A stretch of 64,000 nt of DNA. Source: Hormiphora californensis (taxonomy: Eukaryota; Animalia; Ctenophora). The stretch is taken from positions 1,612,001 to 1,676,000 of the forward strand of contig CM035359.1 in assembly GCA_020137815.1 (NCBI GenBank). Reading direction: 5' to 3'. Positions 4,539-56,269 of the stretch are shown here, in pieces. Every line of letters starts with the position of its first letter. The stretch's first letter is position 1. Made by a program: the position numbers and the translations under genes. Under the pieces are notes generated by a model, which worked only from the letters and a program-made list of their open reading frames with translations, had not been told where the DNA came from and did no database searches.

Positions 4539-5081
4539 AAATGTACAATTGATACGATATAAGTATAGGAGCATGTTTTAATTTGGAATCAGGAATTCTC
4601 GACCGAATACTACAGTATTACAACCAATACTCACACGTCTTAAAGTGTCACGTACTCGGTTATCGTTCTTATTCACCATTCAGCCCAGTTTTCCTGATTG
4701 TGTCGGTTCATCGTTCTTTGGAATACACTTTCTCTCTAATATACCTAAACTGATTACTCTCAATATCTCAATACAACATCTGAGAAAGTCTAACATAGAT
4801 GATCTCTTTCTTCTCTTCTCTAGTGCTCGCATCTACGCCCTCTCTCTTCCTCTCTCTCCTCCTCTCTCAGTCTCATCCATCGACATCGTCTCGCCGATAC
4901 TCTGTATTTTTTTATCAAAGCCTCCTCGTCCTCGAATACTTTAATCATTCTCTCGTTGATCTGAGAACGTTACTGTACTCGATCCTCTCTGGTAGTCTCT
5001 TCTCTGCTGTCTCGTCTCTCTCTCTCGTCTAGGTAATCTCAGTAGGGCTCGGTGAGTAGCGTTCTTTCTCTCTCTCTCTCC

Positions 5082-5178
<97 letters not shown>

Positions 5179-5334
5179 AGCAAGATTATATGGTTGAGAC
5201 TTAAGTGATCAGCAGTGCTCACAAAAGGTGTCTCTGTCTCTTTAAAAATATTCTCTTCTCTGATAATATCTGTCTACTGGACCCACAACATGCTCGATGG
5301 CACCGCACAAGATACTATCAATATTATTATTAGT

Positions 5335-5600
5335 AGGAGACACTAGCGTGGTACGCGCAAAAAATGCGCGCCACACCTTTTTTTAAACACACAATTTAAA
5401 GTTTTTCAAGATTTTTTTATACGTTTTGCCTCAGATGAGATAAAGACTTCAATCCGGTGCCATTCGATGTGCCTTATCCCTTTCTTTCCAACGCTACCAG
5501 ATCGATTTCTTTAGCTTATCAGGAATTGGAGATATTTGATCAATTATGAAAATTCCGCTTCTCGACACTCGAGATTTTGCTCGATTTAGATCATATCTCC
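5335..5600. mobile_element. Partial copy of the TA-flanked MITE family seen complete at 16297-17225
   Basis: Shares ggagacactagcgtggtacgc..aaaatg.g.gccacacc and the downstream ctttccaacg.tacc core. The right TIR is not evident. Confidence 0.6.
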
Positions 5601-7657
5601 TGTTCCTTTACCGGTGTCATTTGATGGGTTTTATCATTCTCTTTTTGGAAACAGTTTCTCAAATATAATCGCCACTATGAGGATACCGAATAGAAGTAAG
5701 TAAACAAGTTATTAGTAACAATATACGTATAATAATTCGTCTTTAACACAATACCGACTAAATGCAGAGATACCCAAGAGAATACGAAATTTTTCAGTTA
5801 TGCAATAAGTATACTTCGGCCTTTTGCACGTGCTTTCAAAAAACAAAAAAGGCTAAGCAACAATCTAGCAACTACCGCATGGACTACTTGCACGCGAAGG
5901 TCTATAAAACTAAATCCAGAATGGTTAAATGTCTGCATGGTTTCGAAACTAAATTGCCCATCAGACGGACATGGGCGAGGTTGCCTTACTATCACGCAAA
6001 GAAAGTCACGCGAAGACCAACTGTTGCAATCTCATGCTGAATAATCATTTTAAAATCGAGTTGAGATAATGATGATGCAGTCGGCCTCGAGCAAATTCCG
6101 CTCTGATTTCTCCCCAAATTACAACTTGTATCAGCAGGGGTGGAATTAAAAATAATTTTAATTATGTTATGTCTGAATATTCTAATTAAATACGTCTGAA
6201 AGGAAGGAGGGAGAGATGAAAGACTATAGCACCGGCCATGAGAAGCAACAATTATCGACCTCCCTGGGTAGTGTATATTACTGAGAGAGAGAGCACCGCA
6301 GCTGTGGCCTCTGCAGCCCAGGGCCCTTCTTTTTTTAACTTATTGCCTAAGGTTATATCATAAGTCATTGTCATGGGCCCTAACTTATAGTTATATATAT
6401 ATCATGCCCTATAGGCACGTGTGGTTTATAATAGTCGAGACAGCTGTGCATAAAAGCGAGGGTGTGGGGTAACGATCCTGCCGGATAAATTCAGGTAACA
6501 ATGAATGGTTTGAATAATATATATTATGGACGGAGAAAATTTAAGCTTTCTTATTCTATATAATGACAGTCCCATGGGAAGCATTCGAGCAGCACTATAT
6601 AACTTCGATAAGGACTCCTATAATTAGATCTGATTATGCAATTAATCCCTCAATTAGCAAATTCTAAGTATAATCAATGATCTATGATCAAACCTAGAAT
6701 TTGCTCCCAGAATCCCTAATTCCAAGAATTCAAAGTAAATTCAACGATATATTACAACCAATCGGAGATTAAAAATATTCTGGATATTGAAACGGGATAT
6801 GCCCCACCAACATTATATATGTGCAGCTGCAGAGGCCATACAACATGATGCATTATAAGGCCGTGAGATTATAATTGTACAGATGTATTTTCAGCTGGTC
6901 TATGGTAATGCAGTTCTCAGGCTGGACTCAATCTTCACAGATCTCAGAGAGATGTATATCGCATGGCCGAATTCTGCAATTAATCTCTTTCACATACGGC
7001 CCAGAAATAACAAGATTGTCCCACTCTCAAGTTCTGGCATCAAATTTTCACAATGAACTGAGAACTCCCTCTTTTTTCTCTCTATTATCATTCATTTTCA
7101 TTCATTTTCAATATCAATGCTGAAGTCCCACCACGGTGACCAGTCATTGTCATTTCTCTTAATAAAACCACTCACTTCTCTATCTAAACGTCTTCTATCT
7201 CTTTCTCATACTATGTACCTTCCCTCTCTTTTTTTTCTCTACCTTTCTCCCCACAATATCTTGTCAAGAAATGTAATCAGTACCTACGGTACTATAATAT
7301 AACACATCCAGTTCTACCTTAGGTGCTATTTTAGAAGCATACCAATACAAAAAAGAAGCTCATATCTCAGATATAGACAGAGGAGAACAATATATATTGT
7401 TCTCCTCTGTCTATATCTGAGATATTATCTGAGATATTATCTCATGGTACTGGTACAATTGTTGGTACTGTTGCCAGAAAGTTACTATGCGAGATACGAT
7501 CTTTTCTTCTTAGTTTTTATAGTAAAAACTATACCCGGAGAATTTCTGTATCGAACATTAACAGTATTGACTATCAAACATTAGCATTCAGTTAATTCAT
7601 TTGATATGATAATTGGTATATATTGGTTGTTTTGAGTCCTAAGAGTCTACATGGTGT

Positions 7658-21028: not shown

Positions 21029-22698
21029 AGTACACATATACTTATGCACGTATTACAAATCCTATTTTATTTTATAACCTCTACCTAGGTCTCTTTGGCA
21101 ACTCGATAGTCATATACAGCTCCACGAGATACAAAGCCATCTCAATTGATCAGGTCTCAATGGTCTTCCTGGAGAATCTGGCTACCTCCGAAGTGCTCAT
21201 ATTGGTCCTACATAACTTCCCAATTTTCGTCAGCGTTCTTTTCAAGAAGTGGATGTTTGGTAGGTTGAATATATATACACAAATCTTGTCCAAACAAGAT
21301 TAATTGCATTATGTTCTAACATAACGCTGAATTTCCCTGCCGTGTCAATCTATGAAGAAAGGAATTAATGACTAGATTTGCGTGATAGTGATACTCAGAT
21401 AATCAGAACACTAGATTACAGCATAATTTACGGTACAGTCGGACCCCGATTTAGGGACACCCTCGGGGGAAAGGCTCTTGTCCACTAAATCGGGGTGTCC
21501 ACTAAATCGGGGTCCGACTGTACAATTAAGCACGTGGAATAGTGGTTAGTGGTTGGCGATACGAAACACACGCACACTCACGCACACTCACACACACACA
21601 CTCACACACGCCCGTGACATGGCTAGAGAAATATGAACTATATTTTTATCTACTTAACCAGGAATGTGCTTTATAAGTTTGCACACGGAGGATAGCACTC
21701 ACATATTAGTAACTTCGTTACGCATAATATTGTGCTATCCTCCAATCTGCACGCCCATGGAGACATGAGGCCAGATTATGTTCAAAACCGTGTCAAACCG
21801 TGTCAAACCGTGTCACACGCTCACCTTGTATATAATGTATATATTCATTCAAATGTCAAGTTGGTTATTCAGAATGAAGATATCTGAACAAGAATTAAAT
21901 AGGGTAGAATATCGAAAAATACTGGGTTTGACCGGGAATTGAACCAAGTTGGTTAGTTCTTATAGGTAGAAAGTGATGGTAATCACTGCCATTTCAGGAA
22001 GCCGAATAAAAATGCTCCTTTTCTCTTCCATGTGGCCTCAAATATGACTGGTTTAGCGAACGTTTTAATACAGTTGGACCCCGATTTACCGGGCACTCCG
22101 ATTTACCGGGCAAATCCCCTTCCCCGAGCATCCCTGTAAATCAGGGTCCCACTGTATACGAGAAATTTGATTCTAAATTGTTGATTATAAGGTCTATACT
22201 TGCATTTAAATGATATATCAGCTAAAAATGTTGATTTTCACTCTGCTGAGGGTTTGTGAATATTTTCGAATGAATATTAACAATTTAGTATTCATAGTTA
22301 CCGAATCAGTTGCCATTGCAACTGTTCGGCGTACTTTATTGACGTTTTAAGGGACGAAAAGAATCATCTGACAAAGCACGTGCAAATACACGTCTTCCCC
22401 AATCTGTTAAATCTATAGCTCTATGAAAAAAGTTCGACTTCCTGTTTCCAATGAGCCCAAGATTTCTGAAGTTGGTTAAGAAATGACTGGCTGTATTCAA
22501 CGTAAAGTGAAGTTGGATTATGCAGGGGTGCAGTTGGGCTGGGTTAGCTGGGGGGCTACTAGTAGCTACTTGATGAATTCGCTAGTATTTTAATTGAATT
22601 ATTTTGAAAGACTTCTCTAGTATTTTAAAAGACTGAAAGTGTATGTATAAAGAGAAATTTCATTCCAACATGCAATACCCTACTATGTGGCTAGTCAT

Positions 22699-23950
22699 TC
22701 ACAACTGTTTGTTTGCTCTCCACTGGTTAGGCAGGTTCACCATCTCCATCTGGCTCCCCCTCACTTCTATCCCAAACCTCTCCTCCGCAAGCCTCCTAAT
22801 CATTTCCTCCGCTTCCTTGTCCACCACAGCATCAGCTCTAGATCTTAACTTGCCCTTAATCGCCCTGACTCATGGTACTGTTCTTTTGACTATCCTGTGA
22901 CATGGCCTGCAGAGCGATATCCGACCATCGTGTTTCAAGTCCGTTATGTGTCAAAATATGAGTAATAAATTCATTGGGATTGGCTAACAAAGACTCATAG
23001 CTATAGAATGGGAGATCGTCTGGTGACCTCAGGGTGGCTTCGCGAACAAAAACCTGGGTCCTCATCAGGAATCCATGAAGTATAAACTTCATGCCTGTGC
23101 CAACACCAATCCTCGCATTCTCCTCGAGGACTTCTTTACTTATAAAACCAGCTTTTATTAGTTTTTCTTTGATAAGAAATGGCGGTATTTTTTTCGTTTT
23201 TATGAAACCAAATGCTAAATAGGATGATACCGCCATCGGTTTCAATCTCCGATACAGAAACGCCTCTCGTACTCCCGGTAAGACTTTGTGAATCATGGTC
23301 ACGAGCATGTAGGTACCAAAACTGGGCTTTATGAAGTATCTCCTACTGGGGGATTTGGCCAGAAATAGGAGCACCGCTCGGAGCTTCTTCAACGTCACTG
23401 GATCATTAACCAAATCCGGATTTCTTATCACACAGCTTGAGATGTCGAAGAGAGGTCCAGGTTCTGCTAAAACCTGACACTGCCCTGTTCTGTAGATCAT
23501 GTTTGCAACTAGAGTTGATCCACACCGGCCTAAATTGTGAAGAATCCCAATGTTTGAGCCATCCTCGCTTTCCCTGTTTTGTATCATATCCAACGCAAGG
23601 CCCATTGATACCTCTCCCAGTTCAACGGCGTGAGCTTTCTTAGCCCTACACAGCCAGGGAAACGCCCTAACATCGTAAATATCGAATGCCAGGGGTGGTT
23701 CTTGCGAACACAAAGCTTGCTTTGGTGACACAAAACAGATGTACATCCTCCCGTTTCAGCCATTCTAAACCCCGTGTCCTAGTGAACTTGCGTAGAAAGA
23801 GAGCGAGGTTGTTGGCACCTGTATCCAATGCCGGTGTATCGTAATAGAGAACGTCGTAGCAGTTGACTAGGTTATGGGGACCATCAGGAGGGGGATATAT
23901 CAGATTCAGGATGGCCTGGAGCAGTTTCAGACCGTACGACAGGAACATAT
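22699..23950 (-). CDS. P-loop sulfotransferase-like protein (last coding exon, two apparent +1 frameshifts)
   Basis: HNLGRCGSTL PAPS-loop-like motif, plus VLAEP, FIKP, FLYR, SYESLL and AMSQDSQ motifs. The frame switches near 23685 (ORF 23667-23948 to ORF 22856-23746) and near 22865 (continuing AIKGKLRSRADAVVDKEAEEMIRRL...NKQL*). Acceptor gtgtttag at ~23951. Confidence 0.6.
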
Positions 23951-26999: not shown

Positions 27000-27125
27000 T
27001 AGTTCAGTCGGACCCCGATTTACCGGGATGCTCGGGGGAAAGGGCTTTCCCCGGTACATCGGGGCCCGACTGTATATTATGATTGATTCACACCCCAATG
27101 CTGGTTATTTCATGTACAATTTCGC

Positions 27126-29281: not shown

Positions 29282-29520
29282 TATAGATTAAAACAGGAGG
29301 TCCGATCTTTATATGAATGTTGGGCGTTGGCATATATGTTGCAGGCCCGTTGCATGCCAGAGAGGCCTGTAGCGTATGCCAATTGTGTTGGAAAAGCTAA
29401 TGCCCCAAAATATCGACATATTTTTCCGTATTCTTCCGATTTATTAAATTGAAATTTCCGTCAGCCTTTTCACCAGCCTCACCCCATTAAGAAATTCTTC
29501 TCAAATGCATATATTTTCAG

Positions 29521-30320
29521 GTCCGTACATGTGCTACTTTACCGCATTCCTGGGGACGATGCCCTTTGTCGTTGAGATCTTCATCCTCGTGTCTCTGGCA
29601 TGCTACCGGGTCTGCGTCCTCAACCGATCCTCTACTATCAATGTCGGATCAGCGGATATAAAAGCGGACAAATACCGGATCCTGGTGAACCTGATTTGGA
29701 TTCTCGGAATATGCTACAGCTTCATCCTCATGTTTGGGATATCCGATAATCTGGCAGTGTACCTGCCGGAACGGTTCCGGTGCGGTCCCAGTAACTTCAG
29801 TAACCCCCAGTACCGGGTGGCCAACACTGTGTTGGTGTTTTGTGTCATACTCCTTCCGATGGTTGTCATAGTAACCGCCAACCTGTACATTCTCGGCAAA
29901 TTGACTGTGTTCAGAGTGAAACGCGAGATGGCCCTAAAAGGCAGTACAAATGTATTTCAGTTCCTATTGGATAAGATTGGGAAACAGAGACATGACAGGC
30001 GGACTAACAGTCAAGTGACATGCCCGAATACAGGGAACACCGTCCTCACCATTACCCTCATATGTTTTGTGTTTGTAGCCTCTTACACTCCCCTCATGGT
30101 GTCCATCGTTCTACGGAACCTGAAAATACCAATACCGGGGTGGTATGACATCTTCTTCACACATTGTCTCTCCCTGAACATTACTTTCAATCCTCTCATC
30201 TACGCAGCAACAAACAAACGATTCAGGCAGTACATGATTGAGAAATTAAGGATTGATTCCTCGGAATACTACGAGGAACCACTTCCGAGAATGAGGCCCA
30301 TTCCAGCGATGGCTGTGTGA
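29521..30320 (+). CDS. Rhodopsin-class GPCR, terminal exon (TM3-TM7)
   Basis: Acceptor ttttcag at 29520, LACYRV (DRY-like), TM5 LLPMVVIVTANLYI, TM6 FVASYTP, TM7 FNPLIYAATNKRFR. The upstream TM1-2 exon(s) were not identified. Confidence 0.8.
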
Positions 30321-31051: not shown

Positions 31052-32050
31052 GGCTGCATTGAAATATATAAAGCAAACGGGAACCTGTTCAGAATTCTGC
31101 AGAATCTTCATACAAATTATACAATGAATCGAATGCTGTGAATATAAATGTAACCAGCTTGAGCTAGTTTCTCTAACTTGCTGAAAAAATGGTTTCTTAA
31201 ATTTATTTCATGCAAAGATTTATTGTTCTAACACAGAGCGCACAGAAAAAGCTAGGCAAAAGATTTAGTTAAGTGGTGTGTGAAATTTTAACCGTTGTTG
31301 TAAATCTTTTTTATGATAGGTACATGGCGAATTCTAATGCAGCCAAATTTTGAAAAAAAGTTTTCACAAAAAATTGAAATCATAAAGAATAATACAGTCG
31401 GACCCCAATTTACCGGGATGCTCGGGGAAAAGTTTGTGTCTTTGCGGAGTTCCGGTAAATCGGGGTTCTGTAAATTAAATCAGTAAATCGGGGTCCGATT
31501 GTATGTTGCCCGGGAAGTGGGCAAGCCTCGTACAGGGGATCGCCCTTCAGGCACGCGAACATGAGGGTCGCGACGTGCCCAAGACTGTATGACGTTTTTC
31601 TACAATCCGTTAAGGGTCGAACAAGGCAAAATTGTATAGAAGCAGAACCGTTTCACAGTCATCGTTTCTGGTAATTTGGTAATTTCCTAATACACTACTA
31701 TAAGCAACTAACTATTAGAAGCAGAACTATATCTGGCAACGTGGGGCCGGGCTAATGATTCCCTGCAACAAGGGTAATGGGTATACAGTTTTATAATACA
31801 CTGATCAAGGTGGTAACAAGCAACAAATAAGCTGAAAATGATCTGGATCAGACACGATCGGAATTCATGAGTGTCGCCATATTATAAGATATTTATAATA
31901 ATACTTCTAGGAACCAGCGCTAACGTCTGCCACAGCATTTATACACATTTTACGTTTATTGCTGTACAAACTGAACCAAGTAATGCAAATTACAATTCTC
32001 CAGTTAGGCAGTTAAACTTTCAGCGAAAATGATTGCTTCATGAAGTTATA

Positions 32051-46165: not shown

Positions 46166-48226
46166 CTACTGTTTTGGGATAGAGTTAATCGTTTTGGTGT
46201 TCTTCATGTAACTGCTGCTCAGGTCTGTGTAGTAGTTGGAGAAGATTAGCTCGTAGGAGAATCCACCAAGAACAGCCGCCACCAGTGGTGCCACAACATA
46301 CACCTACAGGTATAATAGAGTTTAGTTTAGGGGACAACATAAACCTGGGTGAAGGATGAGTGAGACAGAGAGAGGAAGAGGGAGAAAGAATATGAAAAGC
46401 AGTGGTGCCACAACATACACCTACAGGTATATAATAGAGTTTAGTTTAGTTTATAACAGTACAACAATAAAAAGCTACAGCACAGTCCTTTAAAACACCC
46501 TATTAGAGAACATAGTGTAGTATGAGTATAGTTTACGGGAAGGAGGCCGAAGTAGGAAAATAAAAAGCGACAGAAAAGTATATAGTGAAGGTGAGAGAAA
46601 GATAATAGGGGCTTTTTAGACGGAAAAGAGGTTTAAAATTATACTTTTTAGTGAAGACATACTTCGAGAGACACACACAGTCATATATAACAGAGGCAAA
46701 GAGGGATATTGCGATCAGTGATAACGCGGTTAACGGCTAAAAACTAATGACGTTTGTGGTGGTGTATCCGATCTTGTGGTATACATTATACGAATCTAGC
46801 TGCATGTCATGTTCATCTTACCCAGTCATAGCCCTCAATCGTATCAAAGAATGCGTTTGCCAGGAGACTCCGCGGTGGGTTCAATCCACATCCAGTAAGA
46901 GGAACCTAGAGGGAGATTTTAGATCTAGATATGGGGAGATAGGTGTCTGAGCATCAAATTGGGGTATGGCGCCGCTATACAGGGAGATAGTTACTGTCAA
47001 CAAGGATATATGGAATAACGAGGGACCTATAACAGAGGGAGATAGGGATCCCTATATTCGAATTGAATAAGATGAACATAAGAGGAAGGAATTAGATAAC
47101 GTTATTATCAATTACATACAATTATATAACTAAACGATTTTGAGATATTTCAGAAGCTATAATATAGTTTCAGTAATTAATTAAATTGATAATTAAACAC
47201 TAATTACCAGGGCAAGATGTAAGAGGATGAAGGCGAGTCCAACGTACAGAGGGTACTCAATATTGGATTTAACTGTGCTGCGTAACTCGTTAGTAGCTGC
47301 TAGCGCCACGTATACCCATAGTAGAGTTCCTGAAGTGAATTAAATTGATTTTAATGTAGATAAATTGCAGTTTTAATTAGGGAAATGGAATAGGTAGAAA
47401 GGAGTAGAATCGTTTGGAATAGGTGTTGATGCAGTTTATCTAGTTTGGGCATCTGAGGTAAATCATTGATTACTGATCTGCTCATGATTATTGAAAAAAA
47501 AATAATTACCGAATAACTCAAAGAGGAATCCTTGACCAACGTTCACAGAGAGGTGTGTCTCTCCCATTTTCAGATCACACGCGTCCAGAATTGCTGAAAA
47601 TGTGGAACGAGTTCTTAAGTATTCTTGAGGTTGACGCGACAGTTTTTGGCAGATTTGACAATCACACTAGAGCTTCACAGAAGATCTAGCAACTTATTAC
47701 TCTACAAAGGGTATGATTTGGTATGTCCATGTCCATGAAAATTTTACTATGTACATACCTATTGCGAGGAGAGCGCCAAGAATCTGCATAATCCAATAAA
47801 TGAACATTCTAGTCAGGGAGATCCTTTGAACAACAAACATAGCCAGTGAGACAGCCGGGTTAAAGTGGGATCCAGAAATATCGGAGAAAATGTGGACCGT
47901 CGCCGCCAGTGCTGAACAAATGGGGTGGTTTTAGTTGTTAGATTAATCTTCCAAAAAGCCAAAACAAGGCCAAGGTGGTACATCAATAATATTGTATATT
48001 ATACAGACAGTATCATGGCAAAGTTGTACGTACCTGCGCCAAATCCGATTGCAACGCCCAACGTTTCAGTATTATCAGTGGTTGTTGTGGTTGAGTTATC
48101 GAGAGAGTGCTGAACCATGCACCCCCAGAAAATGTAGGAGAAAGTCCCAACTAACTCCGCTATGCATGATCTGTACAGTCTGCCCGATCGGCGGTCTGAC
48201 GGCCTTGGCAGTAGAGACCAACCCAT
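46166..48226 (-). CDS. Aquaporin (MIP family), six coding exons
   Basis: Spliced product MGWSLL...AELVGTF...GVAIGFGA|ALAATVHIFSDISGSHFNPAVSLA...|...GQGFLFELF|GTLLWVYVALA...VGLAFILLHLAL|VPLTGCGLNPPRSL...W|VYVVAPLVAAVLGGFSYELIF...KQ*. All junctions are GT-AG and in phase. Confidence 0.9.
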
Positions 48227-48648
48227 GGTGTGAACTGTAAGCTAGAAACTGCAGAAGTGAATTTAGTGTTTTTTGGGCTGGGATTGGCCTCGGGACCTCT
48301 TGCCAGCGCTTTGATACACATTATTATACGTGTGGTCTGGACGGGCCTACTAACAGAATATTTAAGACTAGTATCATGTATACACTCAATCTATAGGAAC
48401 GGAATCAAGGCGAAAGAATAGTGGGATAATATTGCAGGGATATTGGAATGTTGCAATGTTTTGGAATGTAACAGCGTGGAATGTCGTTATAGTATAACTT
48501 GTAAAACAAATACAACGAGAAAATAGCTTGGGTATATTGAGAAGGGCAGTAGGTATACAGTCAATACACTCAGAAAGGATCATCAATTTCAGGACTAAAG
48601 TGAGATTGTTACTTTTACTAGAGAGAGAGAGAGAGAGATAGAGAGAGA

Positions 48649-48716
<68 letters not shown>

Positions 48717-49187
48717 AGATCAAAAGGGAGATTGTTAGAATTACTAAGTAGTAGATAAAGTAGTACCGCTGTCACACCAAAAAGTGGGGTACACAAATAT
48801 TGAGGGTTTTTACCTCAACATTTAGTTATGCGGAATATTTATGATCATAATGATCGAAATGATCAAAATGATTATAATCAAAATGATCACAATGATCAAA
48901 ATCATCAAAATGATTAAAATGATCGAAATGATTCTGACAGCCAAACGTACATGCGTGGGCGACTAAATAACCTGTATGTGTGGGTTTAACTCAACCTTAA
49001 TTTTCCCGATCGGCAGATTCTGACAGCCAAACGGTAATGTGTGGGTTTAACCCATACTTTAAGCATGCGTGGGCTCTTAGCCGCTTAGCGAACACTGATA
49101 GACAAATACGGATAACTGCTATAGTTACTCACTTTTCGATACTACTGATTTACTTGTGTTACACTTTTTGTTGCTCAAGATTTCAAC

Positions 49188-52100
49188 ATGCCTTGTAAAA
49201 AGCCCTACTCCAATAACCGAAATAAACAATTGAACTGTCCAACGTGTAACAAGTCAGTAAGATCCGATAAAATAGGCCGGCACCTGTTGACACACAACGT
49301 ATCTAAAGAGTGTCGGTTTTGCAAAAAATATATTCGAGAGGATCGACTAGTGCGACACGAAACACTGTGCCAAGCCAAAGTTGATGAAAGTGTCTGTGAT
49401 CGTTCTACAGGAGTACATGAGCATTCCAGCGAGAGCCTCCCACAATGTACGTCGGTGTCAGGATTCTTCCGTTCGTATGACCTGGCAGTGGGAAACAGTG
49501 TTGACTACGATCAAATAATTGAGGATACCTGCTCCGCTGCAAAACCAATCATCAAAGAGTCGGTTAGGAGACACCCAATAAAGGCTCAACTCTCTATCTC
49601 GATATCATTTTATAAGGACGTTGATGGACAACGTAACGCTTCGGAAAAGGTTTTTCGATCTCAATGTGAACCAGTGATAGCAGGGGACAATATTGACGAG
49701 TTCCTCAAACGAGCGTCCGTCATTATTCGACATGGAGTTGAAGTCTACGAGAGGTATGGAAGTGGATGGATATTCGACGGTCATCAGGCTTCAAAACTTG
49801 AGCTGGCAAAGTACTCGCCCTTGTCAGCTTCTGGATTCGTCAGACTACCAAAGATCCTAAGAGACATGAAATCTCTGTTAAACGTCCAGTCAAAAGACAA
49901 CAAATGTTTCCTATATTGCATTCTGGCTCACCTATTCCCTGTCAAGACAAGTCAAGATAGACATACTAAGTATCTCATACATGAGGATAAAGTGGCTATG
50001 GGGGATGTCCAATTTCCAGTCAAACTAAAGGACATTCCCAAAATCGAGAAATTGAACAACTTCTCTATCTCTGTTTTTCAATGGTGTCGTCCGGATTTCG
50101 AGAAAGGAGAAACTGAGTGTGTCATCCCACTGAAACATGGATCTGGTAATGGTACCCGAATCGACTTGCTATATGTCGAGGACGAGTACACCTCCCACTA
50201 CCTACTCATCAAGGACTTCAACAGCTTCATGCGACATAGAACAAAGTACCACAATACGATGTTTTACTGTCGAAAGTGTCTCCATGGCTTTGTGTCGGAA
50301 AATAAACAGAAGTTGCACAGTGAGTTATGTAATCAGGGTATCAATCAGGTAACCGTGATGCCAAAACCTGGTTTTATCGAATTCGAAGCAACGCACAAAC
50401 AAGATGAGAAGCTGTTTCGTATTTACTACGACTTCGAATGTCTTACAGTTCCTTACAGCACATGCGTACCATCTGGTTCTTCTACAACAAAGGTTCAGAA
50501 ACATGTCCCTTGTGCCTTTGCTATTGTTGCAGTGTCAAAGTTTCCAGAATTCAACGAACCTCCCGTGGTATTTAGCGATGCTGATCCACTGGTTGTTACC
50601 CAGAAGTTTACATCGGAGTTATCTCGCATCCATGATAACATGATGAAATGCTACGAGGAAAACCAACACCCAATCAATATGACGAAAGAAGATGAAAAGG
50701 TTTTCAAGTCTTCCAAAACGTGTCACATCTGCAAAAAGGAGTTGTGTTGGGGGTCGGATACTAACTATCCAGTCCGGGACCATGACCACACAAGGAAACA
50801 TGACAACTTTCGAGGAGCGGCTTGCAACTCGTGTAACAGGAGTTATTTCAACCGTAGCAGAAGAATTCCAGCTTTCGCCCACAATATGAAAGGTTATGAT
50901 CTAAACCTGTTTATTAGAGACTTGGTTAAAAGCTGTGAGGAGGAAAGTGACGATGAAGAAAAGAAATCGGGTGGAAAGTCTAATATCAGTTTAATCCCTG
51001 AAAATCTGGAGAAAATTAAGGCAGTTTTCACAGAAAAGTTTACATTCTTGGATAGCTTTGCCTTCCTTTCAACTTCTTTGGATAAACTTGCGAAAAACCT
51101 GAAAACATCCGGAATTGACAAGTTTTCTCACCTGAAACAACAATTCCCGGAGCACTATGAACTGCTAGCTGACAAAGGAGTATTTTTCTACGACTATGCA
51201 TCCTCGTTCGGAGTTTTTGATGAAAAAGAACTACCGCCAAAAGAGTGCTTCTACAGTCAGCTAACTGAGTCAAACATAAGTAACGATGATTATGAACGTG
51301 CTCAAAGGGTCTTTAAAGAAACTGGATGCAAAAACTTGCTGGACTACATGCGTCTCTATGTTCTAACGGACACTCTGCAACTCTGTGACATCTTCGAGAA
51401 CTTTAGAGAGCTGTGTCTTAGTTCCCACTATCTCGACCCTTGTCATTATCTAAGTCTCCCTGCATTTGCTTGGGATGCGATGCTACGTATGACAAGAGTC
51501 AAGCTTGAGGTTCTTACCGATGTCGAAATGTATACATTTGTCGAGCAGGGTCTAAGAGGAGGAGTCACCACGGTTAATCATCGCCACTTCAAAGCGAACA
51601 ACAAATATCTGGAGGATTTTGACCCTAAAAACCCGTCGTCATTTATTCATTATATTGATGCGAACAATTTGTACGGGGCAGCAATGATGAATAAGATGCC
51701 CACAAAGAACTTCCGGTGGCTCGAAGAGGAAGAAATTGATTCGTTTGACGTTCTTTCCACAAGTGCAGATAGAGACAAGTGCTACATTTTGGAAGTTGAT
51801 TTGGAGTATCCCGAAGCTCTCCATGACTACCACACAGATTTCCCCTTGGCAGTTGAAGGGAAACAAATAAACGAGGCCCAACTTTCAGACTACAACAGGC
51901 AGTTTCTGGAACAGCATGGTGAGACGTTTACAGCCTCCAAAAAGTTAGTTCCGGATCTTCATCACAAGATCAAATACACTTGCTCGCTAAAGAACCTGCA
52001 GCTCTTTCTCCGGCATGGTTTGGTGTTAAAAAAGATCCACCGTATTCTTGTAGCAGATCAAGAGGATTTTATGACAGAATACATTCGTTTCAACTCTGCT

Positions 52101-53009
52101 AAACGCCAACAGGCAAGTGACGATTTTGCGAAAGACTTCTGGAAACTATGTAACAATTCCGTTTATGGGAAGTTCATTGAGTCGGTTAGAAACAGAACTG
52201 ATGTCAAGGTAGTCACCGATGAGAGGATGGCCCTAAAATTAACCTCCAAGCCACAGTATCTGGGAATGCATAGACTAGACGATGATATAGCTCTGGTGCA
52301 GTGTACCAAAACAAAGATCGTACTCAATAAACCGATTACGTGTGGTTTTATGGTCCTGGAACATGCAAAACATATCATGTACAGTTTCTGGTACGATGTG
52401 CTTAAACCTCTATATGGTGAAAAAATTAAACTCGTGCTGAGTGATACCGACTCTTTTGTGTATGCTGTCTACACGGATGATGGATATGCCGATTTACACC
52501 AGATGAAGGACCTTATGGATTTGGCTGGATACCACCCTGACTCTGTACTTGGACCGTTCAGGGAGTTAGAGAACAAAAAGGTACCGGGAAAATTCTCGGA
52601 TGAGATGCCGACAGCTATCATTCGGGAAGTTGTGGCCCTAAAACCAAAGATGTACTCCATCTCTACCAAACAACTCATCTGTTCCCAACTGTACAAAGAC
52701 CCATCTCACACTTGTTCTCCCGAGTGCGAAATTGGTCATTCTGCAAGAGCAAAAGGAGTATCCAGTACAGCGAAGAAACGTATTACCCATGAGGATTACA
52801 TCCAAACTTTACGGACTAGAGGAACTACGATGACTAAAAGTAGAGCGATAAGGACTCTAAATAATGAATTGTATAGCGTTGAAATTTGTAAGAGGGGTTT
52901 GTCGGCATTTGACGACAAAAAGTTTATTTTAGAGGATGGTATTAGTACACTTAGTTACGGCCATTACAAGTTGACACTTGCAGATCACAGTCAGGCTTCA
53001 TGCGTGTGA
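49188..53009 (+). CDS. polB: Protein-primed family B DNA polymerase (Polinton/adintovirus type) with N-terminal zinc fingers, terminal-protein/OTU-like region and endonuclease VII-like insertion
   Basis: Intronless 1273-aa ORF. Exonuclease motifs YYDFE, HNMKGYD, FLDS and YVLTD. Polymerase motifs YIDANNLYG, KLCNNSVYGK, SDTDS, KMY and KGV. Also GSGW, DNKCF...HYLLI, and CHIC...VRDHDH...FRGAACNSCN. Confidence 0.95.
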   Translation: MPCKKPYSNNRNKQLNCPTCNKSVRSDKIGRHLLTHNVSKECRFCKKYIREDRLVRHETLCQAKVDESVCDRSTGVHEHSSESLPQCTSVSGFFRSYDLAVGNSVDYDQIIEDTCSAAKPIIKESVRRHPIKAQLSISISFYKDVDGQRNASEKVFRSQCEPVIAGDNIDEFLKRASVIIRHGVEVYERYGSGWIFDGHQASKLELAKYSPLSASGFVRLPKILRDMKSLLNVQSKDNKCFLYCILAHLFPVKTSQDRHTKYLIHEDKVAMGDVQFPVKLKDIPKIEKLNNFSISVFQWCRPDFEKGETECVIPLKHGSGNGTRIDLLYVEDEYTSHYLLIKDFNSFMRHRTKYHNTMFYCRKCLHGFVSENKQKLHSELCNQGINQVTVMPKPGFIEFEATHKQDEKLFRIYYDFECLTVPYSTCVPSGSSTTKVQKHVPCAFAIVAVSKFPEFNEPPVVFSDADPLVVTQKFTSELSRIHDNMMKCYEENQHPINMTKEDEKVFKSSKTCHICKKELCWGSDTNYPVRDHDHTRKHDNFRGAACNSCNRSYFNRSRRIPAFAHNMKGYDLNLFIRDLVKSCEEESDDEEKKSGGKSNISLIPENLEKIKAVFTEKFTFLDSFAFLSTSLDKLAKNLKTSGIDKFSHLKQQFPEHYELLADKGVFFYDYASSFGVFDEKELPPKECFYSQLTESNISNDDYERAQRVFKETGCKNLLDYMRLYVLTDTLQLCDIFENFRELCLSSHYLDPCHYLSLPAFAWDAMLRMTRVKLEVLTDVEMYTFVEQGLRGGVTTVNHRHFKANNKYLEDFDPKNPSSFIHYIDANNLYGAAMMNKMPTKNFRWLEEEEIDSFDVLSTSADRDKCYILEVDLEYPEALHDYHTDFPLAVEGKQINEAQLSDYNRQFLEQHGETFTASKKLVPDLHHKIKYTCSLKNLQLFLRHGLVLKKIHRILVADQEDFMTEYIRFNSAKRQQASDDFAKDFWKLCNNSVYGKFIESVRNRTDVKVVTDERMALKLTSKPQYLGMHRLDDDIALVQCTKTKIVLNKPITCGFMVLEHAKHIMYSFWYDVLKPLYGEKIKLVLSDTDSFVYAVYTDDGYADLHQMKDLMDLAGYHPDSVLGPFRELENKKVPGKFSDEMPTAIIREVVALKPKMYSISTKQLICSQLYKDPSHTCSPECEIGHSARAKGVSSTAKKRITHEDYIQTLRTRGTTMTKSRAIRTLNNELYSVEICKRGLSAFDDKKFILEDGISTLSYGHYKLTLADHSQASCV

Positions 53010-53151
53010 TTAACACTGGCCAGGCTTGTACCGTTTTGTGAAAGATGGGTTTAGTGTGTAGTGTGACAAGAATGTAGAAAATTGTAATTAATATTGCCAT
53101 TTCTTTTATGTAAAAAACTACTTGTTTAAACCTTTGTAAAAAAACACACCC

Positions 53152-53186
53152 TATATAAATGCATCATCAGTTGGTTTTAGTCATTT
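53152..53186 (+). promoter_or_regulatory. TATA box plus initiator-like element for element ORF2
   Basis: TATATAAA at 53152-53159, TCATTT ~29 bp downstream, ATG at 53191. Confidence 0.5.
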
Positions 53187-53190
53187 CACA

Positions 53191-53739
53191 ATGTATTCGA
53201 ATTGCTGCGGTCAAACATTCTCGTCCAGAAAAAAACTTTTAGTTCACCACACGAAGTTTCATGGAGGTGTCTCATGCTACATTTGCAAAAAGAAGTTTTC
53301 GTCCTTTAAGAGTTTGGCTTCACATAGATACAGGTATCATAAGAAATCGTCGAATCAAAACTCCATGGATAACCAGTCAATCGACTCCAACGACTCCTTA
53401 CAAAACACTGACAGAAATATAAATCTTACGAGCTTGGGTAGTCATAAACACAGCGAGCATAAAAAGACATTGAAGCAGATTGCAGACTCCAAACATATAC
53501 GATCCATGGATACCGACGACTCCGAGAGGGGATCTGTCTTGTCAGACTATTCTATTGATTTGGATGTTCCAATTGATGAGTCATATAACTCGAATTCATA
53601 CTCGGACAGTTCATATTCATCTATCCATTCCATGGATTCCGATGACGGCCTCCAATCTCTAACCGATGAAGAATACGAGTTGTCTGATTGTTCTTCTCAT
53701 ATGGATGAATCAACTGATGAGTCAGATCTTTCAGATTAA
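53191..53739 (+). CDS. Two-C2H2 zinc-finger protein with an acidic Ser/Asp-rich tail (element ORF2)
   Basis: CCGQTFSSRKKLLVHHTKFH and CYICKKKFSSFKSLASHRYRYH, then a D/S/E-rich C-terminus. Intronless and inside the TIRs. Confidence 0.75.
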   Translation: MYSNCCGQTFSSRKKLLVHHTKFHGGVSCYICKKKFSSFKSLASHRYRYHKKSSNQNSMDNQSIDSNDSLQNTDRNINLTSLGSHKHSEHKKTLKQIADSKHIRSMDTDDSERGSVLSDYSIDLDVPIDESYNSNSYSDSSYSSIHSMDSDDGLQSLTDEEYELSDCSSHMDESTDESDLSD

Positions 53740-53861
53740 TATATTTTTAGCGTAGAGTTATAGAAGTGTTACAGAGACTACATAATTTTGAAAAATGACT
53801 TTTGTCAGCTGAAACTATTTATCCCTGCAAATATGCGTTTAATTCTTGTAGTTATTCATTA

Positions 53862-54033
53862 CAGTCGGACCCCGATTTAGGGCCCCCCGATTTAGTGGCA
53901 CCCCGATTTAGGGACAGGATTTTTTTCCCCCGATATAGGAAATTAACCTTATTTGACCCCGATTTAGTGGACACCCCGATTTAGTGGACAAGAGCCTTTC
54001 CCCCGAGGGTGTCCCTAAATCGGGGTCCGACTG
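53862..54033. mobile_element. TA-flanked CAGT-type MITE inserted in the Polinton-like element
   Basis: TIR cagtcggaccccgatttaggg, TA both sides. Its right half is the reverse complement of the copy at 21436-21520. Confidence 0.85.
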
Positions 54034-54035
54034 TA

Positions 54036-54832
54036 TTATGATAACTATGATTATTTTGATCATTATTATCATTATTTTTGATCATTTAATCATTTTGATC
54101 ATTATGATTTTAATGACCATCATTTTTGATCATTTTGATCATCATTTTGACTTTAATGACCAACATTTTTGATCATTTTGATCATTATTATCATTATTTT
54201 TGATCAATATTTTGATCATTATTTTTGATCATTTTGATCATTTTGATCATTATGATTTTAATGACCATCATTTTTGATCATTTTGATCATCATTTTGACT
54301 TTAATGACCAACATTTTTGATCATTTTGATCATTATTATCATTATTTTTGATCATTATGATCATTATTATCATTATTTTTGATCATTATGATCATTATTT
54401 TTGATCATTTTAATCATTATTCAGATCATTTTGATCATTTTTGATCCAAGAGTTGTCATATCTTTTTACTTTCATATGATCCATATGATTCATATGATTT
54501 CATATGATTTCACGACATAATATATATAATAATATATATCAAAAATAATCCGGATTTTTGATCATTTCGATCATTTTGATCACCATTCTTGATCATTTTG
54601 ATCATAATTTTGATCATTTTGATCATAATGATTTTAATGACCATCATTTTTGATCATTTTGACTTTAATGACCAACATTTTTGATCATTTTGATCATTAT
54701 GATCATCATTTTTGATCATTTTGATTTTAATGGCCATCATTTTTGATCATTTTAATCATTATTTTTGATCAACATTTTGATCATTTTGATCATTTCGATC
54801 ATTTTGTTCATCATTTTGATCATTATGATCTA
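54036..54832. repeat. GATCATTTT-based satellite-like array inside the element
   Basis: Dozens of degenerate 9-12-bp gatcatt(a/t)tt units with higher-order duplication. The same unit occurs in both TIRs. Confidence 0.85.
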
Positions 54833-56269
54833 TGATATCCCACAGTTTGTCCATATCTTTTAAAAAACCTTTTTTTTATTTTTATATGATCCATATGCTT
54901 CATATTATTTCACGCAAATCATATGAATCATATGAATCAATTAATCCGGATTTCAATTAATTAATCCGGATTTCATACACACATTGAAATTTCAAGTGAC
55001 CTGTATATTTCCCATGTTTCACTTATTACACTTAGACACTTTGATATAAAACGAGGTATAGTTAGGTGCAGTTATACACATAGTACAAACTTGAGATGAC
55101 GCCCGTGTTTTACTTTCATATGATCCATATGATTCATATGATTTCACGCAAATCATATGAATCATATGAATCAATTAATCCAGATTTCAATCAATTAATC
55201 CGGATTTCATGCTCACAATGACCTCCCCCGTTGGGGGAGGTCTTTGAATCTGCTGCATGTACCACATGTGCTGCATATGCAGCAGACTCATTCGCCCCAC
55301 CATGTTACCCGGTGGAGCGGGTATTGGGTTGAGTTAAACTCACACATGCAGTTTATTTAGTCACCCACGCATGTACGTTTGGCTGTCAGAGCAGAATCTG
55401 CCGATCGAGAAAATTAAACCCACACATGCAGGTTATTTGGTCGCCCACGCATGCACGTTTGGCTGTCAGAATCATTTCGATCATTTTAATCATTTTGATG
55501 ATTTTGATCATTGTGATCATTTTGATTATAATCATTTTGATCATTTCGATCATTATGATCATAAATATTCCGCATAACTAAATGTTGAGGTAAAAACCCT
55601 CAATATTTGTGTACCCCACTTTTTGGTGTGACAGCGGTACTACTTTATCTACTACTTTACTACTACTAGTACTAGAGACTAGAGAGAGAGAGAGAGAGAG
55701 AGAAATGGAAAAAAAATTTAAGATTGGAACATGTCTCGATGGGCCCCTTGAAATAATGGAGAAACAGTCAGTGATACACGTATCAAATACTCCCACGGTC
55801 CCCCTCTGTCCCACTGAATCTCTCTCTACTCTTTATCTCGATCTCTCAAACTCTATCTACCATGTATATCTCTATACTTTCTCTCCCTCTGTCTCTCTGA
55901 AAGTATTTGTAAAGTATACATGTAAAGAGATATGAAGGTCGAGACAGCAAAGTTTGCATGTTATGTTTCAAGTCGTTTCATACAACACTTCTTGATTCTT
56001 CTCAGCAGATAAGGGGGGGGGGTAGAAATATGGACCGTAGAATCAGAGGCCCTCTGATTTAGAGGGATGAAAGAAGTAGGGACTGTGGGTTCTACTCTAC
56101 TCAGTGTCACTGCAGTGAGTGCAGAATTAGAGCGGGCCGGGGCGCTAGAATATGAACTGTATCATCACTATAAATCACGAGGGAGGACTCTAGAATTAAT
56201 TGGACTGAGAGACAAAAAAGTAGAGACCATGATAGTCCATTTAATGTAAAGACAGGGAGAAGGATTGAG

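Follow-up and report, generated by a model that had tools for sequence, protein, structure and literature searches.

A 6.9-kb Polinton-derived element of a ctenophore that carries a polymerase gene but lacks recognisable genes for an integrase or virion

Polintons, or Mavericks, have been defined by the possession of a polymerase together with an integrase (PMC5499653). As described in PMC8097293, the Maverick type, in which we include the Alpha-class adintoviruses with a pPolB2-type polymerase and HNH insert, has (AGT)2//(ACT)2 ends, long terminal inverted repeats (TIRs) and a 6-bp target-site duplication (TSD); the polymerases are reported to combine a vOTU motif with PF03175 (PMC8502044, PMC11161782) and to carry a nuclease insert (bioRxiv 2023.08.22.554363). 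Membership is commonly judged by TIRs of 100-1500 bp with (AGT)2//(ACT)2 or (AG)3//(CT)3 ends, a TSD of 5-8 bp (usually 6 bp) and a size of 13-25 kb. Here we describe a Polinton-derived element of 6,910 bp (~6.9 kb), with two genes only, at positions 48747-55656 of the window, the 64,000-nt stretch of Hormiphora californensis DNA that was analysed. It resembles Polintons in its ends, repeats, duplication and polymerase, and differs from them in its size and in lacking genes for an integrase, ATPase, protease or capsid. The literature searched did not describe Polintons in ctenophores, and the main texts of the mostly open-access papers searched gave no account of an integrated element with pPolB and neither integrase nor capsid. 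Of two genome surveys, one demanded five core proteins within 20 kb and the other combined several hallmark genes with a requirement for long inter-repeat loops; surveys of this kind filter on a polymerase plus integrase or hallmark genes, and their design would exclude short elements that carry only the polymerase.

The element starts with AGTAGT at 48747, ends with ACTACT at 55656 and is flanked by TTACTA on the left (48741-48746) and on the right (55657-55662). From the composition of the window, the probability of a random 6-mer match was computed as ~1 in 3,300, the true chance being somewhat higher because the insertion site is rich in TAC repeats. Arm-versus-arm alignment placed the left TIR at 48747-49046 (+ strand; gapped end approximate) and the right TIR at 55363-55656 (- strand). 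Between the two arms there is no difference in the first 202 nt (48747-48948 on the left); the following 37 nt (ungapped to 48985) differ at 3 positions, and a gapped alignment extends to ~300 nt (left arm to about 49046). The left TIR contains a 9-bp array (48841-48932). Both the TIRs and the TTACTA pair lie within the Polinton/Maverick ranges, whereas the size does not. Ends of this kind with a 6-bp TSD are those of Mavericks (PMC8097293), and the insertion bears the hallmarks of a Polinton integrase.

The larger gene, pPolB, is a predicted protein-primed family B polymerase of 1273 aa (49188-53009, + strand), identified from its ORF, Pfam, motif alignment and a structure model. It matches PF03175 (E 7e-17) and comprises N-terminal zinc fingers, a putative terminal-protein region assigned by its position, an exonuclease with motifs I-III that is interrupted by an HNH/endonuclease VII-like insert (aa 498-551; E 5e-4, under the Pfam cut-off), and polymerase motifs A, B, C and KxY. 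The window protein keeps every catalytic residue that was tested, and nearly every such site is conserved in 35-36 of the 36 clade sequences compared. Residues C240 and H337 are invariant (36/36), and we take them to be a vOTU-type pair; of the two marks of the Alpha adintovirus PolB class, PF03175 is matched and the N-terminal OTU domain is putative. The model of aa 85-1263 (pLDDT 89.5) had as its top solved-structure match the phi29 polymerase bound to its terminal protein (E 2e-18), and its top viral matches were adintovirus/bidnavirus-type PolB. Among the 40 listed of 621 rows, 22 of 30 differing pPolB sites fall at third codon positions (p 9e-6). A Pfam search of the element's ORFs gave no helicase family match. 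The polymerase appears to be of the Polinton/Alpha-adintovirus type and differs from the Tlr1-like helicase-polymerase that transpovirons use.

The second gene, ORF2 (53191-53739, + strand; from ORF and family comparison), encodes 182 aa with two C2H2-type fingers, whose Pfam matches fall under the cut-off, and an acidic Ser/Asp tail; a TATAAA 37 nt upstream of its start (53154-53159, + strand) is a candidate promoter. The fingers and acidic tail make a regulator likely. Folded alone, ORF2 gave an uninformative model (pLDDT 50.6). Atlas searches returned only generic zinc-finger clusters for ORF2 and no match for the C-terminal domain of its family, and PHROGs, NCBIfam and PDB-sequence searches gave no name for ORF2 or for the tail of its relative P0337.

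The right part of the element, ~1.67 kb (53740-55413), has no stop-free frame longer than 71 aa. It holds a 172-bp host MITE (53862-54033; perfect inverted ends of 21 bp and a TA on either flank), which occurs a second time in the window at about 21436-21521 and is a passenger outside the element's machinery. Beside it, repeat analysis located an imperfect GATCA-containing array of ~800 bp (54036-54830; 9-, 31- and 148-bp units), which is 73-81% similar to the array inside the terminal repeat, and two copies of a 114-nt module (54874-55221), 92% similar and 234 nt apart, of which contigs of a second organism (organism B) miss about one unit. A double DNA hairpin (55216-55286, + strand; z -4.7, with 0/200 shuffles equally stable), also covered by organism B contigs, is a candidate replication or integration signal. 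A 68-79-aa 'DHF' ORF in the right repeat was rejected as a gene, being a translated 9-bp array with no Pfam match, and three Rfam miRNA matches were discarded as far under their gathering scores. The original prediction of AGTAGT termini, long TIRs, a perfect 6-bp TSD, an uninterrupted polymerase ORF and one zinc-finger ORF was borne out throughout; its description of the last ~1.6 kb as repeat array without a credible ORF held for coding capacity and was incomplete as to the MITE, the module pair and the hairpin.

None of 226 ORFs from 28 loci matched the window outside pPolB, and the 14 ORFs of two fuller Polintons (L029, L030) gave no tblastn match there at E 0.1. The queries took in Pfam-confirmed rve integrases (L013, L014, L018, L029) and one Pfam-confirmed packaging ATPase, the only virion gene so confirmed; the protease and capsid ORFs of L029 and L030 are labelled as we read them. 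Neither an rve integrase nor a virion module (packaging ATPase, protease, major and minor capsid proteins) was thus recognisable, and no coding room is left for one. This agrees with the predicted absence of such genes, and the integrase remnants that might have lain at 53740-55400 were not found with the rve queries or among the ORFs of that interval.

These results lead us to favor, with a probability of roughly 60%, the view that this is a self-copying Polinton derivative without integrase or capsid, probably one of a family of short ctenophore elements, inserted by an integrase supplied in trans. Its pPolB would likely copy it by protein priming from the inverted ends; by analogy with known Polinton biology, it may free its own terminal protein via the vOTU domain and copy a linear extrachromosomal form. 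A retrovirus-type integrase of another element with matching ends would then link the AGTAGT ends to a host target cut with a stagger of 6 bp, and the GATCA arrays might, speculatively, be a target of ORF2. The satellite nature originally proposed is in keeping with the intact, conserved polymerase, the missing integrase and virion genes and the integrase hallmarks. We put the odds about even on whether the donor is a full Polinton or a polymerase-less partner, which fits as well as a full-length helper. In individual X2, right subterminal contigs had a depth of 99-109 against 32-36 for pPolB/ORF2 contigs, a weak hint of such a partner with the same ends.

Several indirect lines suggest a family rather than a one-off deletion. 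The window pPolB belongs to a 48-tip clade (support 1.0) whose named members are all ctenophores. In the Bolinopsis gene model P0149, pPolB is spliced onto a tail of the ORF2 family, and P0242, from another assembly, joins the C-half of ORF2 to the translated right repeat. At 4 of 6 Mnemiopsis loci the copies form adjacent pairs with consecutive accessions, as in KAL5253683/4 and KAL5248168/9, and the four pairs from the main cluster that were compared are 98.6-99.9% identical. P0001 consists of two tandem copies. Adjacent accessions in Mnemiopsis may reflect only gene calls that were missed, and the annotation shows no ORF2 between the pairs either. Element termini with flanks unlike either window flank were present in two other individuals, X2 and X5 (one contig each), and organism B has pPolB, ORF2 and the right-hand modules. 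Among representatives on contigs of up to 25 kb, none of 27 within the clade reached 10 kb versus 12 of 39 outside it (p 0.0009). Assembly type confounds this contrast, and 15 distinct contigs of 10-25 kb do carry cluster members. Two loci of the same pPolB clade, L001 and L003, have no ORF2 within 510-560 nt behind pPolB. At least three clade loci (L001-L003), none of them with both ends, were found in the 20 of 64 metagenome parts scanned; IMG/VR gave no match for the polymerase, the polymerase alignment, the terminal 20-mer, P0337 or P0342, and a scan of prokaryote genomes yielded only distant Polintons, which served as controls. The pPolB/ORF2 contigs of X2 lie at about half the depth of their flanks (62-71), a ratio that would at most point to a very small number of exact copies. 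No RNA data set was among those listed as containing the element. The mobile family that had been predicted is favored by joined gene models, adjacent pairs, other flanks and organism B, while the contigs examined included no further complete short copy with its two ends, and none of them, from X2, X5 or organism B, spans the whole element.

A full Polinton could instead have inserted with its own integrase and later lost its integrase and virion genes at this site, which we consider unlikely. Decay is widespread, with 96% of vertebrate Mavericks reported as degraded (PMC8097293); the arrays inside the element may make it prone to deletion, and it has already received a MITE insertion. ORF2 itself is a shortened member of its family: relatives elsewhere end in a conserved domain of ~100 aa that it lacks, which implies decay under way, and an in-frame remnant of that domain past the ORF2 stop was rejected for want of a profile match. 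Moreover, P0337 is fused to a tail that, in a comparison with 14 proteins, shows weak similarity (E 2e-4) to a small protein encoded beside a full Polinton's putative capsid gene, so that fuller relatives probably exist or existed. Against this, the same short ORF2 end recurs in diverged relatives (P0243, P0244, P0250, P0273 and P0274; 70-85% identity), the junction of ORF2 with the right repeat recurs in P0242, and the right-hand modules are common to organism B. The 202-nt identity of the TIR arms leaves little time for a deletion, and no core-gene remnant was found with the queries used. The short layout is likely to be a family trait.

Slightly less probable again is a nuclear linear plasmid that replicates autonomously with no helper and reaches chromosomes either when the host repairs breaks or when the HNH-like insert nicks DNA, the 6-bp duplication then stemming from microhomology in TAC-rich sequence. 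The 36 sequences compared share a conserved HNH-like motif, the insertion site is similar to the element's own ends, tandem copies such as those in Mnemiopsis and P0001 would suit concatemer integration, and no helper was seen among the sequences examined. However, base-exact ends and a duplication of precisely 6 bp are the signature given for the Maverick integrase (PMC8097293), and HNH inserts are also reported in the polymerases of ordinary integrase-bearing Polintons (bioRxiv 2023.08.22.554363). An assembly collapse over the GATCA array that conceals integrase and virion genes is very improbable: no contig examined spans the array, but its units are only about 60-92% similar to each other, the window contains no N, X2 and X5 pieces cover much of 54252-55628, most without differences, and none of the 24 loose ends listed (of 79) was shown to run into coding sequence.

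Returning to the trans-integrated derivative, a doubtful but possible extension is a split (bipartite) Polinton virus of comb jellies, with the element as polymerase segment and a polymerase-less segment with the same ends giving integrase and capsid; equally tentatively, its lineage would span lobate and other ctenophores, each half dependent on the other. If true, this would explain how a diverse clade fully conserves its polymerase without any insertion gene. Should the whole clade live in this way, the replication and the integration/packaging modules of Polintons can persist as separate cooperating elements, and this would be a surviving intermediate stage of the path by which Polintons are proposed to have given rise to linear plasmids, transpovirons and bipartite bidnaviruses. 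It also offers a compact natural polymerase with a fused putative terminal protein on which to test Polinton self-synthesis, long assumed but unshown.

Compared with known systems, the element goes a step beyond the capsid-less Polintons, nine of which are reported to have jointly lost the capsid, protease and ATPase genes (PMC4028283), in that the integrase is gone as well. The polB-lacking Polintons of Pieris mannii are likewise incomplete and form the mirror case, with the polymerase gone, the other genes kept and complete relatives in the same genome; they are described as still amplified, so that complementation in trans is implied (bioRxiv 2025.02.07.637071). Transpovirons and eukaryotic linear plasmids are also described as short capsid-less linear replicons with their own replication gene (PMC11161782). 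Transpovirons are described as mimivirid parasites with a Tlr1-like polymerase-helicase without exonuclease, and the plasmids as cytoplasmic or mitochondrial, whereas the element combines an exonuclease-bearing Polinton polymerase, without a helicase family match, with insertion into a chromosome and a TSD of 6 bp; the original likening to a transpoviron thus suits its mode of life and not its polymerase. The Bidnaviridae share a related, Polinton-derived PolB and are reported to have two segments with matching termini (PMC8502044). Unlike these single-stranded DNA viruses of parvovirus descent, the element shows no parvovirus-type gene and has Maverick-type ends and a target duplication.

The element spans 6,910 bp (48747-55656), starts with AGTAGT, finishes with ACTACT and is flanked on each side by TTACTA. 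Its inverted arms were identical over 202 nt, followed by 3 mismatches in 37 nt and a gapped alignment to ~300 nt, bearing out the original prediction of two termini, ~200-bp identical terminal repeats and a 6-bp target-site duplication. Mavericks are described with the same end motif and 6-bp duplication in the portion of PMC8097293 consulted. The predicted uninterrupted 1273-aa polymerase (pPolB) and 182-aa zinc-finger (ORF2) reading frames were likewise found, at 49188-53009 and 53191-53739, both on the forward strand. The element lies ~520 bp upstream of the start codon of an aquaporin/MIP gene, whose first exon is at 47999-48226 on the reverse strand (PF00230, E 2e-5). Left of the insertion, two 24-nt direct repeats (48597-48620 and 48723-48746; 83% alike), each ending in TTACTA, flank a GA microsatellite, and the target site is similar to the element's own TAC-rich ends. 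Other window features were a rhodopsin-family GPCR ORF (29448-30320, forward; PF00001, E 2e-13) and a 299-aa ORF (22856-23755, reverse) without a match in the Pfam search.

The pPolB protein matched PF03175, with an endonuclease VII match below the cut-off, and has exonuclease motifs I-III, polymerase motifs A-C, KxY, a Cys/His pair, which we take to be vOTU, and HNH-like residues. Nearly every one of these residues was conserved in 35-36 of the 36 clade sequences, with variation at two HNH positions. A structure model of residues 85-1263 was confident (pLDDT 89.5) and, among solved structures, best matched the phi29 polymerase bound to terminal protein; among viral models its best matches were adintovirus and bidnavirus-type PolB. 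Judging from domain order in the part of PMC11161782 consulted, pPolB holds a putative terminal-protein domain. Among related contigs, 22 of the 30 differing pPolB sites displayed (40 of 621 rows listed) were third codon positions (p 9e-6). Over 1,648 nt, one contig of sequencing run X2 showed 12 differences relative to the window; 12 listed differences cluster in an 80-nt patch (51023-51101), which would reflect either a mosaic of subfamilies or an effect of the assembly.

A protein search with pPolB returned 442 relatives (120 listed). In a FastTree tree of 124 sequences and 1136 columns, which left out P0044 and P0046 (too short) and P0045, P0047 and P0052 (fusions or partial matches) and used P0001 from residue 601, the window protein fell in a 48-tip clade with a long stem and support of 1.0. 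We infer that this is a ctenophore clade because Mnemiopsis leidyi and Bolinopsis microptera are the only members named in its clusters. In the distant relatives L008 (1-420) and L009 (1-660), at ~30% identity, an AGTAGT start lies just ahead of pPolB; in L009 the gene is followed by 1 kb of non-coding repeats (4990-6029). Both are possibly other short elements.

ORF2 combines two C2H2-type fingers with an acidic tail. Its close relatives (70-85%) share its end point; in more distant relatives the match is to the second finger (P0246, E 5e-11). A search with the relative P0245 gave 22 representatives in which a finger and an acidic linker precede a conserved C-terminal domain of ~100 aa. The window ORF2 matched the family finger profile (E 7e-8), and a profile search found no trace of the C-terminal domain in it. 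The family P0320-P0341 also has a basic patch, and its C-terminal domain matched no Pfam or Atlas family. One member, P0337, is fused to a tail that weakly resembles the small protein encoded next to the putative capsid gene in the full Polinton L029 (E 2e-4, 14 proteins), a pointer to fuller relatives, which probably exist or existed. The contigs L029 and L030 are of Polinton type (polymerase, integrase or ATPase); their place in bacterial MAGs is probably due to eukaryotic-virus contamination.

The predicted lack of integrase and virion genes was upheld by tblastn against the window: 226 ORFs from 28 metagenome loci gave no match outside pPolB, and the 14 ORFs of two fuller Polintons likewise had no match at E 0.1. 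Among the queries were Pfam-confirmed integrases and a packaging ATPase. Despite ends and a polymerase of Polinton type, the element thus falls outside the Polintons on the membership test. In the distant relatives L013 and L014, integrase immediately follows the polymerase. The right 1.67 kb, predicted to be a repeat array without an ORF, indeed holds no frame longer than 71 aa; the array itself (~800 bp, with a 9-bp unit common to the terminal repeats) is accompanied by a duplicated 114-nt module, a double hairpin (z -4.7) and a 172-bp MITE (53862-54033), which the prediction lacked. The TA-flanked MITE, with 21-bp inverted ends, is presumably Tc1/mariner-like and showed very high depth in sequencing runs. 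It is identical over 81 nt to its second copy near 21436-21521 and is therefore young; weaker window matches of this high-copy family lie near 22069-22172, 27005-27064 and 31389-31432.

The exact ends and the 6-bp duplication are observed; beyond them we infer, at a probability of about 0.62, that protein priming at the ends would copy a linear form of the element, which would be inserted in trans by the integrase of a second element whose ends match. That integrase may come from a full Polinton or from a partner lacking the polymerase. In X2, right-subterminal contigs were about three times deeper than pPolB/ORF2 contigs, the one hint of such a partner, which decayed copies would explain equally well. 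A split virus, with the element as polymerase half and a polymerase-less partner supplying integrase and capsid, is a less probable reading.

A one-off deletion of integrase and virion genes at this locus is unlikely, as several indirect observations favor a family of short elements. In the Bolinopsis gene model P0149, residues 498-1103 of pPolB are spliced to a tail of the ORF2 family; in P0242, a model from a different assembly, the C-half of ORF2 runs into the translated right repeat; and P0001 is a splice of two tandem copies. In Mnemiopsis there are six loci, each on its own chromosome-scale contig (a count resting on 26 of 29 and 13 of 15 cluster members), with consecutive protein accessions for two copies at four of them; four compared pairs in its main cluster were 98.6-99.9% identical. 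Among representatives on contigs of 25 kb or less (setting aside 14 clade and 32 outside representatives on longer ones), 0 of 27 in the clade reached 10 kb versus 12 of 39 outside it (p 0.0009). Parts of the element occur in runs of two organisms, the second covering pPolB, ORF2 and the right-hand modules, where its joints leave out roughly one 234-nt unit. In both X2 and X5, a single contig runs from a terminus into flank unlike either window flank. Against a family, no second whole copy was seen among run contigs or metagenome loci, 15 distinct contigs of 10-25 kb carry cluster members, ORF2 is not annotated between the Mnemiopsis pairs, whose neighboring accessions may be due to genes missed in annotation, and the loci L001 and L003 lack ORF2 within ~550 nt behind pPolB. 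Element contigs in X2 were at about half flank depth, which weakly suggests that exact copies are few. A helper-free plasmid entering by repair or through its HNH insert is slightly less probable still than a local deletion, and assembly collapse is very improbable.

In the literature searched, main texts in part, we found no description of integrated elements keeping only a polymerase, nor of ctenophore Polintons; the main text of PMC11797021 has no term for the latter, and the content seen of PMC12859917 is unrelated to them. Published Polinton surveys filter by several core genes. Three known systems come close, each as described in the portions consulted. Capsid-less Polintons (PMC4028283) share capsid loss with the element, which also lacks integrase. 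MELD viruses (PMC8502044) are similarly integrase-less but of capsid type, whereas the element has no capsid genes. Amplified Polintons without polB (bioRxiv 2025.02.07.637071) lack the polymerase that the element has kept.
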